Below, piece after piece: positions 1,811 to 8,406 of a stretch of DNA of 64,000 bases. Origin of the DNA: Escherichia coli. GTDB taxonomy: Bacteria > Pseudomonadota > Gammaproteobacteria > Enterobacterales > Enterobacteriaceae. The first letter of the stretch is position 1, and every line of letters starts with the position of its first letter. The notes beneath the pieces were generated by a model. The model was not told the DNA's origin. It searched no databases and saw nothing but the letters and a program-made list of their open reading frames with translations. The DNA lies in the NCBI RefSeq assembly GCF_030013595.1, contig NZ_CP122768.1. The stretch is one strand, 5' to 3'. The position numbers and the translations under genes were made by a program.

Positions 1811-2788
1811 TTAAGCACCTCCTAGTGGATTAAACCTCACCGCATCCTGCAGGTAATCCGGCGCAAGATGGGCATAAATCATCGTTGTCTGAATCTTTGC
1901 GTGCCCCAGAATTTTCTGGAGCGTCAGAATATTGCCGCCGTTCATCATGAAATGACTGGCGAAGGTATGGCGCAGCGCATGAACAGCCTGGCCGTCAGGA
2001 ACATCAGGTGCGACCGTTTTGATGACATCGCGAACCAATGGATAATCCAGCGTCGGAAACACCAGTTTCCCGCCCCGTATTTTGATCTTTTCAAACAGGC
2101 TTTCAGAAATAGGAACGGTACGGTTTTTGCTGTTCTTCGTTTTTGAAAAAGTGATTCGACAATGAAGAACACGGCGCTGCTCTAGTGCCGCTACCTCGCC
2201 CCATCGCGCCCCGGTCGACAGAAGGATTTCGACAGCCAGCCGTTCATCGGGATTTTCAGCCAGTGCATCCAGCAACTGAACACATTCAGACTTACTCAGA
2301 TATCCCATTTCGCGCTCGTTAACCTTCATTCCTTTAAGGCCTTGAACGGGGTTATCGTTAAGAAAATGGCCGGATGAGATGAGTGCGGTAAACATCGCGC
2401 TTAACGCCCCAATCTCTCGATTTATGGTGCTGGGCTGTATCCCCTGCTCTATCCTGGACACACGTAGCTCGGTGAGCATCGTTGTATTAAGTTTATGCAC
2501 GCACGGGTCATCCATTGCCTCACTCAAGCGCAGCAATTTAAGGCGCGTGTTATGCCCTGACTTCATTAGCTGGCCGTGGTATTTCCACCACAAGTCAATA
2601 AGCACTGACAGCGGGCGGCGATCAATGGAGTTTCCTTTCCACTCATTGTTATGCTGTTGCGCCAGCACCCACCGCTCATATAAAACTGCATCCGATTTCG
2701 TTTTAAATTTTTTGCGAATGCGTTTGCCTTTACGCCCCTCAGGACGCATGTCAAGAAGATACCCTCCCGGAATTGATTTTATGCTCAT
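1811..2788 (-). CDS. int: Tyrosine integrase (P2 Int-like)
   Basis: C-terminal HxLRHT...Y catalytic region (AVHALRHTFASH...MIYAHL); adjacent to C repressor as in P2. Start chosen at MSIKS (ORF is open up to 2938). Confidence 0.85.
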   Translation of the reverse strand: MSIKSIPGGYLLDMRPEGRKGKRIRKKFKTKSDAVLYERWVLAQQHNNEWKGNSIDRRPLSVLIDLWWKYHGQLMKSGHNTRLKLLRLSEAMDDPCVHKLNTTMLTELRVSRIEQGIQPSTINREIGALSAMFTALISSGHFLNDNPVQGLKGMKVNEREMGYLSKSECVQLLDALAENPDERLAVEILLSTGARWGEVAALEQRRVLHCRITFSKTKNSKNRTVPISESLFEKIKIRGGKLVFPTLDYPLVRDVIKTVAPDVPDGQAVHALRHTFASHFMMNGGNILTLQKILGHAKIQTTMIYAHLAPDYLQDAVRFNPLGGA

Positions 2789-2837
2789 TCGTGAAGCCCC
2801 AGCGTTACAAGACCACCATGCCCCCAGCGTTCCATGA

Positions 2838-3149
2838 TTAGCCGGGCTGTGTGCCAGTCTTGCGGGATTTTTGAGAAGACGATGTGTTTTCTGGCCCATC
2901 AGGGGAGAGAGAAGGACTGATCTGCCCAGCAGCCTCATTTGTTTCGTTACTCATCAACCACGTAGTGTATTTTTTAAATTCCGGGTGCATTGTGATTTTC
3001 AGTAAAACCTCCGTTCCCACACCTCGAATACCAGTCTCGTATTGCTTAACCGTACCAACCGCAATACCTATTGAATCCGCGAACTTTGCCTGACTAAGCC
3101 CCTCAGATTCTCGAATTGCTTTTAGCTTCTTTGATATCTCTATTGACAT
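2838..3149 (-). CDS. C: Immunity repressor (P2 C-like, HTH)
   Basis: About 103 aa from MSIEISKKLKAIRESEGLSQAKFADSIGIAVGTVKQYETG; helix-turn-helix; divergent from the early operon. Confidence 0.75.
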   Translation of the reverse strand: MSIEISKKLKAIRESEGLSQAKFADSIGIAVGTVKQYETGIRGVGTEVLLKITMHPEFKKYTTWLMSNETNEAAGQISPSLSPDGPENTSSSQKSRKTGTQPG

Positions 3150-3244
3150 GGTGTGCACCTGAATACTATATTGGTTATCAGTTGAGTACCACTTGACACT
3201 ACAAAGAGCCACAAATAGCACCAGATTGAATAGGTTATCACACC

Positions 3245-3523
3245 ATGGCAAAAGTCCTTAACACATACGAACAAGCGGATTTTGAGCGTTTGGCGGCGTT
3301 CTACCCATACCGTAATGAACATGGGCTACCGGTACTTGAAGAAAGCCTGGAGGATTATGCGAAACGCACAAATCAAAGCATTCTCGCTGTAAGAAGGCAG
3401 GCTGATAGATCGGTAATTCCCGTTACTCAAGAAGGAAGAAACACAAAACGCAAAGTAAATCTCTTCGCAATTTTCCTGAAAACCATCAGAAACGCAGAGA
3501 AATACGTGCAAATGACAAAATAA
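3245..3523 (+). CDS. First early-operon gene, putative Cox/Apl-like regulator
   Basis: 92-aa ORF divergent from the repressor, positionally equivalent to P2 cox; no clear sequence match recalled. Confidence 0.45.
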   Translation: MAKVLNTYEQADFERLAAFYPYRNEHGLPVLEESLEDYAKRTNQSILAVRRQADRSVIPVTQEGRNTKRKVNLFAIFLKTIRNAEKYVQMTK

Positions 3524-3537
3524 CGAGGTGTCATTTT

Positions 3538-3876
3538 ATGCTGAAGCAACGCCGTAATTTTTGTACCGGAACAGAACGCCACGCTAACCGTTTCACTACC
3601 AGTGCATCACGCAGCAACATCCGCTACAGCCTGAGTGATACACACGCAACGCCGGATGGCTACCCAGTAAAACAAATCGGCGAGCACGCCTGGCTGATTG
3701 AGAAAGCTGGAATCGTGATCCACAAATGCCCACGCAATCCGTTTACCGGAAACCGCATTTTTGCACTGAGCTGTGGCGACAATCAGTTCGGGCAGGATTT
3801 CACATTATACGAAGCACTTCGCACGGTTGATCGTCTGCTTCGCGGGCAAAGTTTTATTAAACAGGCTGATTTATAA
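3538..3876 (+). CDS. Hypothetical early protein
   Basis: ORF with GAGGTG ribosome-binding site. Confidence 0.5.
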   Translation: MLKQRRNFCTGTERHANRFTTSASRSNIRYSLSDTHATPDGYPVKQIGEHAWLIEKAGIVIHKCPRNPFTGNRIFALSCGDNQFGQDFTLYEALRTVDRLLRGQSFIKQADL

Positions 3877-3886
3877 CAGGTGCTTT

Positions 3887-4174
3887 ATGACCAAAGACCA
3901 TGCACAAGGTGTATTTATTCGTTTTATTGATTTTCGCGGTGAACTGTTATTACGTGCATCCGCTATTGACGGAGTGACTCCGGCGGGTAAAAACGGAGCC
4001 GACGAAGCCACTTACGTTTATCTGAACGGCACGCGACTGCTTGTGGAACTTCCGTACCAGACCGTACGAGAAATCATCAGCGAAGCTGAAAAGGCACGCC
4101 AGGTTAATGGCGATGAACCCTATATCGAAATTATTTGTATGGATTCAGAAGCTGAAATACAGAAAGCAGATTAA
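3887..4174 (+). CDS. Hypothetical early protein
   Basis: ORF from internal ATG directly after the previous stop. Confidence 0.5.
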   Translation: MTKDHAQGVFIRFIDFRGELLLRASAIDGVTPAGKNGADEATYVYLNGTRLLVELPYQTVREIISEAEKARQVNGDEPYIEIICMDSEAEIQKAD

Positions 4175-4182
4175 AGGGCGTT

Positions 4183-4428
4183 GTGATGGGCAAAGAATAT
4201 AAAACTCTCATTAACAAAGCACTTGAGCGTTTTTATTTTCGCTTAAGTGCATCAGGCGCTCATGCTGAACGTGCGGCCCGTGACTCATTGACCAGAGCAA
4301 TCCGAAGTCTGTATGACGTGGCTTTTTACGCTGATGATCTGGATGCACTTAACGAACTTTCCGAGCTGATCTGTGCCGCAGAATGCGGGGAACATATTGA
4401 ACCGTATAAGCTGGGAAATATCGCATGA
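4183..4428 (+). CDS. Hypothetical early protein
   Basis: 81-aa ORF in the early operon. Confidence 0.5.
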   Translation: MMGKEYKTLINKALERFYFRLSASGAHAERAARDSLTRAIRSLYDVAFYADDLDALNELSELICAAECGEHIEPYKLGNIA

Positions 4429-4538
4429 GTATATTTATTTCATGGCTTGTTCTGATTATTTCGGTGGCCTGCGCCATTGGGATTATGCGAATTATTAATT
4501 CAGTAAAAAAGATTGAACGCTTTTTCACTGAAGAATAA
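4425..4538 (+). CDS. Small hydrophobic peptide (37 aa), translationally coupled
   Basis: ATGA overlap with upstream stop; MSIFISWLVLIISVACAIGIMRIINSVKKIERFFTEE is a single predicted transmembrane helix. Confidence 0.3.
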   Translation: MSIFISWLVLIISVACAIGIMRIINSVKKIERFFTEE

Positions 4539-4624
4539 CCGCGCAAATAAGACCCCAGGTTAAATAAGAAAATGTGAAAACAATCCGCATTCGCGGAGGT
4601 ATTCGCACACGCCAAGGAGGCGTA

Positions 4625-4828
4625 ATGGCAATTAAGCATTTTCCTGTCGTTCGTTTCACCTCCAGAGGACGTGAATACGAAGTTGACGAACGCCTGATTA
4701 CCACAATCGACAAACACCGTTCAGAAAAGGATGCACATCACATCTATCTCACTGACGGCACTTACTTCTGCGCCACCAATGTGGTGCAGGTGAATCTTAT
4801 CAGACAGGTACAGGAGTCACGCAGATGA
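4625..4828 (+). CDS. Hypothetical early protein
   Basis: ORF with AAGGAGG ribosome-binding site. Confidence 0.5.
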   Translation: MAIKHFPVVRFTSRGREYEVDERLITTIDKHRSEKDAHHIYLTDGTYFCATNVVQVNLIRQVQESRR

Positions 4829-5070
4829 CCATTCTGGACTACATCGCTGCCAATCCGGGTTGTAGCAGTGGAGAAATCGCCGCAGCACTGAATACACCAA
4901 CCACAACCATTAATGCGGAGCTACGCCGTCTCTGGCGCAGCGGTTTAGTCACAAGAAAAGAGCGCAAAACAGGCGGTCGCTTTTCTTATCAGGTAAACCC
5001 GATGCCGTTTGGGTGTAGCAACCCACTAACCCAGATGTTCAACCAGCTACTGAGGGAAATCAGAGCATGA
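4825..5070 (+). CDS. Hypothetical early protein (possible winged-helix DNA binding)
   Basis: 81-aa ORF, overlaps previous stop. Confidence 0.45.
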   Translation: MTILDYIAANPGCSSGEIAAALNTPTTTINAELRRLWRSGLVTRKERKTGGRFSYQVNPMPFGCSNPLTQMFNQLLREIRA

Positions 5071-5211
5071 GCACCTCCAACTGCCGGAAACCACGTCGGG
5101 CTTCAGCAGCTCATCCGGCAGCAAAACAAACTCCATTAATTCCTGTTCCGGGCCTTTCCTGCACCTTGCGGCGGGAGGCCTTCGCACATCTGTAACAAGA
5201 GGATTGCCGCA

Positions 5212-5577
5212 ATGATTCTCGCCAACGACTTTCTTGAATACCTGCTCAACACAGAGCGTGATCTTGCCGTTCGCGTGCGTGAACGTTATGACATGTACCT
5301 GAAATCCCTGCCTGTACCGCAGCTCGCTGACGGAAAGATTGTTATTGATGGTCGCTACATGATTGACAGCCACGAGGGAAATTACAGGCTTTACCGCATT
5401 GAAGGTGGCACCCCGTCCGTTATTGGCATTTACCAGCGCCCATCCTCTGCAATCGTCGATGTGATTGCCGACAGCATCCGCATCACACATCGCCATGCCG
5501 ACACAGAAGACACCGTGCTGGAAATTCAGCGGCTGGCTACAGTCTGCCGCGACACCCTGAATGGCATGACGAAGTAA
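5212..5577 (+). CDS. Hypothetical early protein
   Basis: 121-aa ORF upstream of A. Confidence 0.5.
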   Translation: MILANDFLEYLLNTERDLAVRVRERYDMYLKSLPVPQLADGKIVIDGRYMIDSHEGNYRLYRIEGGTPSVIGIYQRPSSAIVDVIADSIRITHRHADTEDTVLEIQRLATVCRDTLNGMTK

Positions 5578-5583
5578 ATCACT

Positions 5584-8406
5584 ATGACGGCAAAGTACAT
5601 CAGGGACTGGCAACAACCGCGCCACGCAGTGGGGCGTGAAGGAACGGGGATCCCCGCTCCTGAATCCGCGCTTTCCTCCTGGCTGGATGCCTACCGGGCA
5701 GAGAACGAGCGCCGCCAGGAAATGGCTGATGCGGCGTTCTCCGCCACGCCGCTGGGCAACCTGATTAATAAAAGCCTGGACGCACAGGAAAAACAGGACA
5801 AAACCATCACACTGGCAGGAGACGCCAGAAAACAGGCACGCGGCGCGGTGGATGAAGCCATGGCCTCGCTGCGCCTGCTGCCGTCCTATCTGCGCGATCC
5901 GCTTATTCGCCACCTCTCCTTCCTGCGCAAAAAACAGGAAGCCGATCGTCAGAAAGGAAAAAACGCCAGGCAGGCAGAACGCTATGCGCGTGGGACCCTG
6001 CGCAAAATATTCGAACGTCTGGAGCGCACCGATCACCGCTGGCTGACACCGGGTTATCGCTCCCTTGCCGGACGCGAACGCCTGGACGATTTGCTTTACC
6101 TGCCGCAGCTCAACAAACACCAGATACAGACGCTGGCCACCATGACGGCGGCGATGTTCAGCAGCACCTTCGAAAAACTCTGCGATGGCTTTGGCGCGAC
6201 CGATGGCGAACTGACCATGGATGTAACGCTGAAGGCGTATCAGATGCTGGCCCGCATGGCGTTACACCTGCACATCATGCCTCCACATTATGACGCACTG
6301 ACAACAGACAAAGACCGGAGGAACGAACCGGACACGGAGCTGCTGCCGGGCGCAATCCTTCGCCTGACCTGTGCGGAATGGTGGAAACGCAAACTGTGGC
6401 TGTTACGTTGCGAGTGGCGGGAAGAACAACTCCGCGCCGCCTGTCTGGTTTCCAGAAAAACATCACCCTATCTGAGCCAGGACGCGTTAAGCGAGTTTCG
6501 CGCACACCGCGAGAAAACACGCGATTTCCTGAAAAGTTTCATGCTGGAAAATGAAGACGGGTTCACGATTGATCTCGAGACGGTGTATTACGCGGGAGTA
6601 AGTAACCCGGTTCACCGTAAGGCAGAAATGATGGCCACCATGAAGGGGCTGGAACTTCTGGCCGAAGCCCGTGGCGACAGAGCGGTGTTTCTGACTGTCA
6701 CCTGCCCGTCAAAATACCACGCAACAACGGAGAACGGTCATCCGAATCCCAAATGGAACGGGGCCACCATGCGCGACTCCAGCGATTACCTGGTTAACAC
6801 GTTTTTTGCGACGGTCCGCAAAAAACTGAACCGCGACGGTCTTCGCTGGTATGGCATCCGCACGGTGGAGCCTCACCATGACGGCACTGTGCACTGGCAT
6901 ATGATGGTCTTTGCACATCCGGACGAGATTGAAACCATCGTGTCCCACGTCTGCGATATTGCCATTCAGGAAGACCGCCACGAGCTGGGCGATGATATTA
7001 CTCCGCGTTTTAAAGCGGAGTACGTCGACGGCTCAAAAGGCACGCCAACCAGCTACATCGCCACCTACATCGGAAAGAACCTGGACAGCCGCGCCGTGGA
7101 TGGCATCGCCCCGAAAACGGGCAAGCCACGCGTTGACCACGAAACCGGAAAATCAATGGCCGAGAGCGTGGAGCGCGCCATCGGCTGGGCGCGCCTTCAC
7201 CGGGTCCGCCAGTTCCAGTTCTTTGGCATCCCCTCCCGTCAGGTGTGGCGTGAACTGCGCCGCCTTGCCAGCCAGATGGCACGCAACCCGGAAGGCCCGC
7301 AACGGCTGAAGGATGACGCAATGGATGCAGTGCTCGCTGCCGCTGATGCCGGGTGTTTTGCCTCCTACATTGAAAAACAGGGCGGCGTACTTGTTCCACG
7401 CCAGGACTACCTGATTCGCACCGCCTACGACCTCGCAGATGAGCTGAACGATTACGGCGAACAGAGCGTACAGATTTACGGGATCTGGTCACCACTCATC
7501 GGGGAGTCTTCCCGTGTGTGCACACATCCGGATAACTGGAAGCTGGTAAGACGTAAACCGGAAGCGGAAGACAGCGCCCGCGAAAATGGTTTTGACCTTC
7601 AGGGCGGCCCTGCCGCCCCTTGGACTCGTGGCAATAACTGTCCCCGTGTACAGGAAACGGACAACAACGGGACAGAACAGCCGGAAGAACGGCCAGCACC
7701 GTGGCCGCAGCTCCCTGACGGCGTTGAAGTGAACGAATGGATGCGCTCACTGAAACGGCACGAACGCCGGGCGCTGATGCGTTCGCTTCGTGACAAACAG
7801 GCAAAAAACAGCAGTGATGAAATGCAGAGCTGGACACAGAGCCGCAAACAGCAGCGGCCTTTGCCTGATAACCACGAATTACTCGCTAAAGAATGGCGGG
7901 AGTCTGCTGAATCTCTCGGCCTGCATATCGGTGAACAACAGATGCAGCACCTGTTACGGGGCGGCAGTCTGTACGTTGACGGCAGCATCATTGCACCGCA
8001 GGGATTTGAAATTGTACGCAAACCGGATACCCGCCCGGACAGCCGAATCACGCAGCTCTGGCAGCGCCTGAGCCGTAATCATGGCGTAAGCAGCACGGAG
8101 ATCCGCCATAACCCGGTCGCCAGCTATCTGGCACAGCTGGGGGCATCAGACCCTGAAGCCGCCGCACGCCTGGCATCCACACTTCAGCAGGACCAGAACA
8201 CCATGAAAACACCCGTTACCGTGCTTTCTGACATGCTGCGCGCCATCCGCGACGCAGAGCACGCACAGAGAATCAGTGAAACCACTGAACGCGCCAGCCG
8301 CAAAGCAGACCTGCTGCGGGGTGGCCTGACCAGTGGAAACAAAAAACAGACAGAAACGGGACTCACGAATCCCGCAAATGAGCAAAAAACGCGCAGCGAT
8401 ATATGA
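5584..8406 (+). CDS. A: Replication initiation endonuclease (P2 gpA family, rolling-circle)
   Basis: 940-aa ORF with the HUH-type region (GTVHWHMMVFAHPDE) and conserved P2 position between early genes and the Q/P packaging genes. Confidence 0.85.
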   Translation: MTAKYIRDWQQPRHAVGREGTGIPAPESALSSWLDAYRAENERRQEMADAAFSATPLGNLINKSLDAQEKQDKTITLAGDARKQARGAVDEAMASLRLLPSYLRDPLIRHLSFLRKKQEADRQKGKNARQAERYARGTLRKIFERLERTDHRWLTPGYRSLAGRERLDDLLYLPQLNKHQIQTLATMTAAMFSSTFEKLCDGFGATDGELTMDVTLKAYQMLARMALHLHIMPPHYDALTTDKDRRNEPDTELLPGAILRLTCAEWWKRKLWLLRCEWREEQLRAACLVSRKTSPYLSQDALSEFRAHREKTRDFLKSFMLENEDGFTIDLETVYYAGVSNPVHRKAEMMATMKGLELLAEARGDRAVFLTVTCPSKYHATTENGHPNPKWNGATMRDSSDYLVNTFFATVRKKLNRDGLRWYGIRTVEPHHDGTVHWHMMVFAHPDEIETIVSHVCDIAIQEDRHELGDDITPRFKAEYVDGSKGTPTSYIATYIGKNLDSRAVDGIAPKTGKPRVDHETGKSMAESVERAIGWARLHRVRQFQFFGIPSRQVWRELRRLASQMARNPEGPQRLKDDAMDAVLAAADAGCFASYIEKQGGVLVPRQDYLIRTAYDLADELNDYGEQSVQIYGIWSPLIGESSRVCTHPDNWKLVRRKPEAEDSARENGFDLQGGPAAPWTRGNNCPRVQETDNNGTEQPEERPAPWPQLPDGVEVNEWMRSLKRHERRALMRSLRDKQAKNSSDEMQSWTQSRKQQRPLPDNHELLAKEWRESAESLGLHIGEQQMQHLLRGGSLYVDGSIIAPQGFEIVRKPDTRPDSRITQLWQRLSRNHGVSSTEIRHNPVASYLAQLGASDPEAAARLASTLQQDQNTMKTPVTVLSDMLRAIRDAEHAQRISETTERASRKADLLRGGLTSGNKKQTETGLTNPANEQKTRSDI

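Follow-up and report, generated by a model that had tools for sequence, protein, structure and literature searches.

The 37-codon open reading frame (ORF) at positions 4425–4538 of the window, the whole 64,000-nucleotide stretch of Escherichia coli DNA analysed here, is very probably a genuine protein-coding gene whose product is, with good confidence, a membrane protein. Across related loci the peptide is under purifying selection, and both its ATGA overlap with the preceding gene and its synteny are conserved. The original prediction of a real, coupled, small hydrophobic gene in a phage early operon is borne out by a conserved frame, a codon-position bias and a dN/dS below 1. The reading we favour, with moderate confidence, is that the ORF is the orthologue of gp07 of phage P88, lies in an operon with a Pe-like promoter, is coupled to the gene of a DUF4754 protein, and encodes a single-pass peptide with an accessory host-directed or tethering role. 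The gene is already known in public annotation and is in that respect an ordinary finding.

Setting in the early operon and existing annotation

The prophage in the window is P88-type and P2-like (genus Xuanwuvirus, family Peduoviridae), with its control and early region at 1.8–8.4 kb of the window. Window DNA is 88–97% identical to that of P88-type phages, and positions 4183–4640 are 99.1% identical to a prophage adjoining btuC in E. coli E2348/69, with which the gene order is shared. The features on which the argument rests are the following:

1811–2938, minus strand: integrase gene
2838–3251, minus strand: HTH_3 repressor gene
3143–3172, plus strand: strong promoter-like site TTGACA-18-TATATT, 11/12 consensus matches
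4186–4428, plus strand: gene of an 80-aa protein matching Pfam DUF4754 (E = 2.8e-54), a predicted three-helix bundle
4413–4417, plus strand: weak Shine-Dalgarno-like GGGAA, 7 nt 5' of the ATG, within the end of the DUF4754 gene
4425–4428, plus strand: ATGA start/stop overlap with the DUF4754 gene, a putative translational coupling signal, read from the sequence and kept in all lineages
4425–4538, plus strand: gene of a probable small membrane protein, P88 gp07 orthologue, peptide MSIFISWLVLIISVACAIGIMRIINSVKKIERFFTEE

The ORF runs on the plus strand from an ATG through 37 codons to a TAA. Its ATG (4425–4427) overlaps the TGA stop (4426–4428) of the upstream 80-aa gene, and the GGGAA within the end of that gene would serve as a weak Shine-Dalgarno-like element. 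The promoter-like site lies between the divergent repressor gene and the first plus-strand gene, as Pe does in P2, and by this analogy it is probably the early promoter Pe, driving the operon that holds the ORF. Plus-strand genes follow in the order 92-aa gene, DUF4761, phrog_3800 protein, DUF4754 and the 37-codon ORF, and continue with a phrog_3459 protein, a MarR-type winged-helix protein, a phrog_3237 protein and a 940-aa gpA-like replication endonuclease. The integrase, repressor, Pe-like promoter, DUF4761, phrog_3800, DUF4754, peptide and gpA-like genes thus stand in P2/186 order.

Two other sites in this region differ from those of relatives. The 92-aa gene (3245–3523), which occupies the cox/apl position, matches no Phage_Cox model in Pfam, in contrast to its counterparts in P88 and several relatives, which points to a different immunity or switch module, of the kind in E2348/69. 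Further downstream, a 42-codon ORF at 5067–5215 begins at an ATGA overlap with the stop of the MarR-type gene, and its counterpart in E2348/69 is annotated as a partial 'ash family' pseudogene. Since relatives carry ead/Ea22-like and Phage_ASH genes at this site, the prophage of the window appears to have suffered a deletion there.

The ORF had been described as unannotated, which a comparison with public records corrects: it is already listed in P88, in RefSeq and in UniRef. In phage P88 it is gp07 (YP_009113050.1), annotated as 'membrane protein', and phage vB_EcoM-569R5 has a 'putative membrane protein' at the same position. PGAP calls a 'hypothetical protein' in E. coli E2348/69 (WP_000021668.1, one residue different from that of the window) and in other E. 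coli genomes, and the exact 37-aa sequence is on record in about 1000 contigs, with the UniRef source name 'Prophage membrane protein'. Three phage records, Shae_phiSM, 520873 and 503458, omit the ORF. P88 gp07 is 95% identical to the peptide of the window (35/37 residues), with equal length, the same ATGA overlap and the same place in the operon. Full-length similarity, synteny after DUF4754, the ATGA overlap and the P2-like early operon together place the peptide in the P88 gp07 type. Nothing material distinguishes it from P88 gp07, WP_000021668.1 and the UniRef entries, which carry no experimental characterisation.

About a quarter of the complete E. coli genomes carry the region (1388 of 5426). 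Using tblastn, we found the peptide at 84–100% identity in 12 P88-type phage records, and a profile search of 1.84 billion proteins retrieved only its own family, with 17 representatives. Source names of the peptide were Escherichia throughout, with occasional Shigella, Salmonella, E. albertii and a Citrobacter phage. A DUF4754 profile run against contigs from one genome per species gave no sign of a wider taxonomic spread, matching only E. albertii and one probably contaminated contig of a Collinsella metagenome-assembled genome. The latter (L020, JAIJJM010000267.1) is a 4-kb Collinsella-binned contig with a 99% identical E. coli prophage DUF4754 gene, and its assignment is almost certainly binning contamination. 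Scans of the peptide against Pfam, PHROGs, NCBIfam and PADLOC gave nothing significant: Pfam returned no family at E <= 1, and the best NCBIfam match, to an unrelated family, had E = 0.079. Neither these family scans nor the profile search revealed homology to any characterised protein, and a search of the accessible literature for DUF4754, the peptide sequence, Xuanwuvirus and P88 yielded nothing on the peptide gene or DUF4754.

Conservation and coding evidence

By itself the 37-codon ORF is not significant, because at the local base composition 36 more sense codons follow a start with a chance probability of about 0.15; its conservation is what carries weight. Dozens of spurious ORFs of similar size lie near it. 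Two candidates overlapping it were rejected as spurious: a minus-strand ORF of 122 aa (4349–4717), which is interrupted by stops in 27 of 43 colinear loci, and a 41-aa ORF in the +2 frame (4373–4498).

Loss of the frame in related loci had been set as the result that would refute the gene, and on examination the frame proved to be conserved. Phage records, E. coli genomes, IMG/VR contigs and assemblies together supplied 101 related loci. An intact frame of 37 or 41 codons beginning at the ATGA overlap was found in 88 of them, and every intact related locus kept an open frame of 37–41 codons together with the overlap. Nine further loci carry a 45-codon allele produced by the loss of one base from the T-run at 4520 (codons 32–34), which changes only the last four residues and yields the C-terminal end SLANNRANKTTG or similar; this deletion is recurrent. 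Phage Chuche has a 30-codon nonsense allele, and the rest comprise two frameshifted loci and one cut by a contig end. The 45-aa allele in nine loci and the 30-aa allele of Chuche suggest that the last residues of the peptide are dispensable or phase-variable.

Substitutions follow the pattern of a translated frame. Minimal mutations at the three codon positions numbered 15/6/34 in the peptide frame, matching the pattern in DUF4754 (33/21/94), whereas the other two plus-strand frames had no third-position bias and gained stops. According to the Nei-Gojobori method (NG86), dN/dS was 0.11–0.46 for the peptide in every measurable pair, at dS up to ~1.9. Three deep lineages (L102, L103 and L106), found by the profile search of 1.84 billion representative proteins, extended the comparison: their upstream protein is 26–40% identical to that of the window, and their peptide 51–65% identical. 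These peptides have 41 aa (for example MSVFLSWVILIISVLMAIGIMRIIEALKNIESLFTGEERRK), start at an ATGA and are preceded by purine-rich Shine-Dalgarno-like elements. The overlap is retained in the deep lineages despite a differing C-terminus of the upstream protein, and GGGAA has purine-rich counterparts in GGGAG (L017), GAGGAG (L103), GAGGTG (L106) and GGGGA (L102). Eleven residues of the peptide are invariant: M1, S6, W7, L10, G19, I23, I24, K28, I30, E31 and F34. The 37-aa form looks like the 41-aa form with a nonsense change at codon 38, and an in-frame vestigial 'xxK-stop' follows the 37-codon ORF.

Had the ORF arisen by chance, its conservation would have come from an overlapping non-coding element or from the youth of the prophage family. 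Such an origin is compatible with the chance probability of ~0.15, with DNA identity above 85% in most relatives and with the lack of a family in Pfam, PHROGs or NCBIfam. It sits poorly with a third-position bias specific to the frame of the ORF, with dN/dS below 1 even at dS of ~1.9, and with the retention of frame, ATGA and Shine-Dalgarno-like element where the flanking protein is only 26–40% identical. The broken minus-strand 122-aa ORF and the lack of an Rfam match count against it as well. The codon-position bias, the deep lineages and dN/dS largely refute a chance origin, and we give it next to no credence.

In two loci (L015 and L016, 2501–2830), a one-base deletion in the DUF4754 gene gives a 109-aa frameshifted product that crosses the peptide region in another frame; the peptide frame itself is intact.

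Predicted membrane helix, putative DUF4754 partner and downstream hairpin

The peptide divides into a hydrophobic segment and a basic tail, and the single predicted transmembrane segment of the original prediction, like the ATGA overlap, is present in the sequence:

4431–4487, plus strand: predicted transmembrane helix IFISWLVLIISVACAIGIM, codons 3–21 (hydropathy, invariant columns, helix prediction)
4488–4529, plus strand: basic amphipathic tail RIINSVKKIERFFT, codons 22–35, predicted to be cytoplasmic (hydrophobic moment, invariant columns)

Residues 3–21 have a Kyte-Doolittle 19-residue mean of 2.68 and a Hessa sum of -2.9 kcal/mol. Within this segment S6, W7, L10 and G19 never vary, and only small residues occur at positions 13 (S/A) and 17 (A). 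No lysine or arginine lies on its N-terminal side and four lie on its C-terminal side, where the 41-aa forms add a further KRRK, ERRK, KRHK or KHHK. For the tail, the helical hydrophobic moment is 2.0, compared to 0.92 for shuffles (p ~0.02); its invariant residues are I23, I24, K28, I30, E31 and F34. AlphaFold2, run with a 14-sequence family alignment, modelled a single helix over residues 2–35 with a pLDDT of 90, and hydrophobicity is retained across lineages. By the positive-inside rule, we infer a single-pass inner-membrane protein with its N-terminus outside and its C-terminus inside.

The upstream DUF4754 protein was modelled by AlphaFold2 as a three-helix bundle, also with a pLDDT of 90, and a fold search of the PDB with this model returned generic helical bundles, none at E <= 0.001. 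One locus (L107, 3262–3626) is recombinant, combining an E. coli-type DUF4754, 83% identical to that of the window, with the divergent 41-aa type of peptide; the exchange falls exactly at the gene junction, and a Mu-like transposase gene lies upstream. This mixture argues against tight allele-specific co-evolution of DUF4754 and the peptide.

Beyond the ORF, which is the last cistron of the first conserved early block, lies a conserved hairpin:

4584–4597, plus strand: hairpin TCCGC-ATTC-GCGGA, 46 nt 3' of the ORF stop, in all lineages

The element as a whole (4574–4612, seen in L001–L108) consists of an A-rich run, the stem-loop TCCGC-N4-GCGGA and then GG. Every lineage, deep ones included, retains the stem, and the loop is variable. 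Variation within the stem includes one compensatory C-G/U-A exchange and two G.U variants for which pairing is restricted to the plus strand, and 99.3% of cells are paired overall. Between the ORF stop and the hairpin lie 31–46 nt across loci. The hairpin also scans as terminator-like on the minus strand (4597–4584), outside the ORF; a role there as terminator of an antisense RNA is disfavoured, as the natural G.U variants would become A.C mismatches in an antisense transcript. Beyond the stem, the sequence reads GGTATTCGC in the window and GGGCTTCAC in L106; it resembles the tails of P2 and 186 terminators (GGGCTTCTTTTT and GGGCATTCTTTT) but has no U-run.

The early operon of phage 186 comprises, in order, apl, cII, fil and dhr, the terminator tR1 (annotated as anti-terminated in lytic growth) and the genes towards A; in P2 a putative terminator follows gene B. 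We read the hairpin of the window as the positional equivalent of 186 tR1 and of the P2 intra-operon terminator, although 186 tR1 has a U-run and the P88-type hairpin does not. It may act as a leaky terminator or as a site of pausing or processing. The gene after the hairpin (4625 onward) varies between colinear prophages, with products of 67, 71, 92, 137 or 162 aa when the window is compared with L002, L010, L017, L102 and L107. The hairpin therefore marks a mosaic boundary between the conserved early block and a variable accessory block.

Candidate roles and known systems

Both the class of small toxins and the small accessory membrane proteins of the AcrZ, MgtS, CydX and KdpF type have been reviewed (PMC12648545). 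The peptide shares the size class of the accessory proteins (below 50 aa with one transmembrane helix), and by analogy we presume a similar mode, in which it would bind a larger membrane protein. It differs from them in being phage-encoded, in lying in a lytic operon and in having no homology to them. AcrZ and CydX are laid out as a single helix with the N-terminus outside and the C-terminus inside, which is also the layout predicted for the peptide.

In position, the nearest counterparts of the peptide are 186 fil and dhr, which share its slot: they too are short overlapping cistrons that close the first early block, ahead of a hairpin and the replication-gene block. Both have host-takeover functions, fil blocking division and dhr blocking host replication. 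The likeness ends with the slot: Fil has 75 aa and Dhr 66 aa, neither is transmembrane, and Dhr is non-hydrophobic. When the peptide profile was aligned with Fil, hhalign gave a probability of 0.55%, too low to indicate similarity, and a likeness of the tail to the Fil C-terminus (IIRIVH versus IMRIIN) was rejected as not significant. A search of the P2 and 186 early operons for a small transmembrane ORF found none. The analogy to fil and dhr is one of position only. Single-gene lysis peptides of ssRNA phages, such as the 37-aa LysM of phage M, are very small transmembrane proteins that bind a host membrane enzyme; the ORF differs from them in virus class and timing, belonging to the early genes of a tailed phage with a holin-endolysin cassette of its own.

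A membrane-damaging peptide of type I toxin or holin character, which would oligomerise and dissipate the proton-motive force either for host shut-down or within a module for addiction or abortive infection, is in our view improbable. The resemblance to toxins of the Fst, Ldr, TisB and Hok classes is real in size (< 50 aa), in the single N-terminal hydrophobic helix and in the charged C-terminal tail, and the small-xxx-small spacing of positions 13 and 17, together with the invariant G19, would permit helix packing. Of the type I features legible in sequence, the hydrophobic peptide is, however, the only one present, and the original suggestion of a toxin or regulator is weak. The ORF has no promoter, 5' UTR or independent transcription unit of its own, its start overlapping the preceding gene inside a long operon. 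A consensus scan of 2800–5700, which speaks to sequence motifs rather than transcripts, detected no minus-strand promoter-like site for an antisense RNA. Nor did an Rfam scan of 3000–6000 reveal an antitoxin RNA family, its sole match being a chance snoRNA hit (E = 0.22). The peptide has no sequence match to known toxins: Pfam gave none to Hok, Ldr, Fst, TisB or Ibs at E <= 1, and PADLOC gave none either. Moreover, phage replication would suffer if the membrane potential collapsed at an early stage of infection. The ORF is not a holin, because it lies outside the lysis cassette, in the early operon, between the repressor/Pe region and the replication gene A.

Less probable still is that translation alone matters, the ORF carrying translation of the early mRNA forward as far as the tR1-like hairpin and thereby preventing Rho-dependent polarity or modulating the hairpin. 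The position of the ORF suits such a relay, as the last cistron before the conserved hairpin, where 186 has an anti-terminated terminator, and so does a C-terminal end that varies in length among 30, 37, 41 and 45 aa. Yet the amino-acid sequence itself is constrained, as the range of dN/dS, the eleven invariant residues and the retained hydrophobicity indicate, and conservation is higher in the peptide than in the bona fide protein encoded next to it. In addition, a stop 31–46 nt before the hairpin is too far away for a terminating ribosome to occlude it.

In the account we favour, that of a coupled single-pass peptide with an accessory role, we take the following course for its operon expression, topology, dispensability and function. 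The ORF would be the fifth cistron of the rightward early lytic operon, transcribed from the Pe-like promoter, and so would be silent in the repressed lysogen. Ribosomes finishing DUF4754 would re-initiate at the overlapping ATGA, so that the peptide and DUF4754 would be made together. The peptide would form one continuous helix, with residues 3–21 spanning the inner membrane, a two-residue N-terminus outside and the basic amphipathic tail (22–35) in the cytoplasm or on the inner leaflet. Presumably too small for catalysis, it would most likely make helix–helix contact with a host inner-membrane protein or tether DUF4754 to the membrane; in this way it would play a dispensable part, accessory or in host takeover, during the early lytic phase. 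Any one specific function is tentative and has a low probability.

It is conceivable, though we consider it unlikely, that the peptide and DUF4754 work together as a two-protein module for host takeover, not described before, in P88-type phages. If so, the peptide would anchor or activate the three-helix-bundle DUF4754 at the inner membrane, and the pair would block some host process, for example division, envelope synthesis or a membrane-bound defence, as a functional counterpart of 186 fil/dhr.

The finding challenges no current view. It illustrates that a 60-aa ORF cut-off hides real, already annotated genes, here one whose region occurs in about a quarter of complete E. coli genomes yet has neither a family entry nor a publication. 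Better conserved than its neighbours, the peptide gene is a cheap and well-defined candidate for work on small phage membrane proteins and on early host takeover in P2-like phages.
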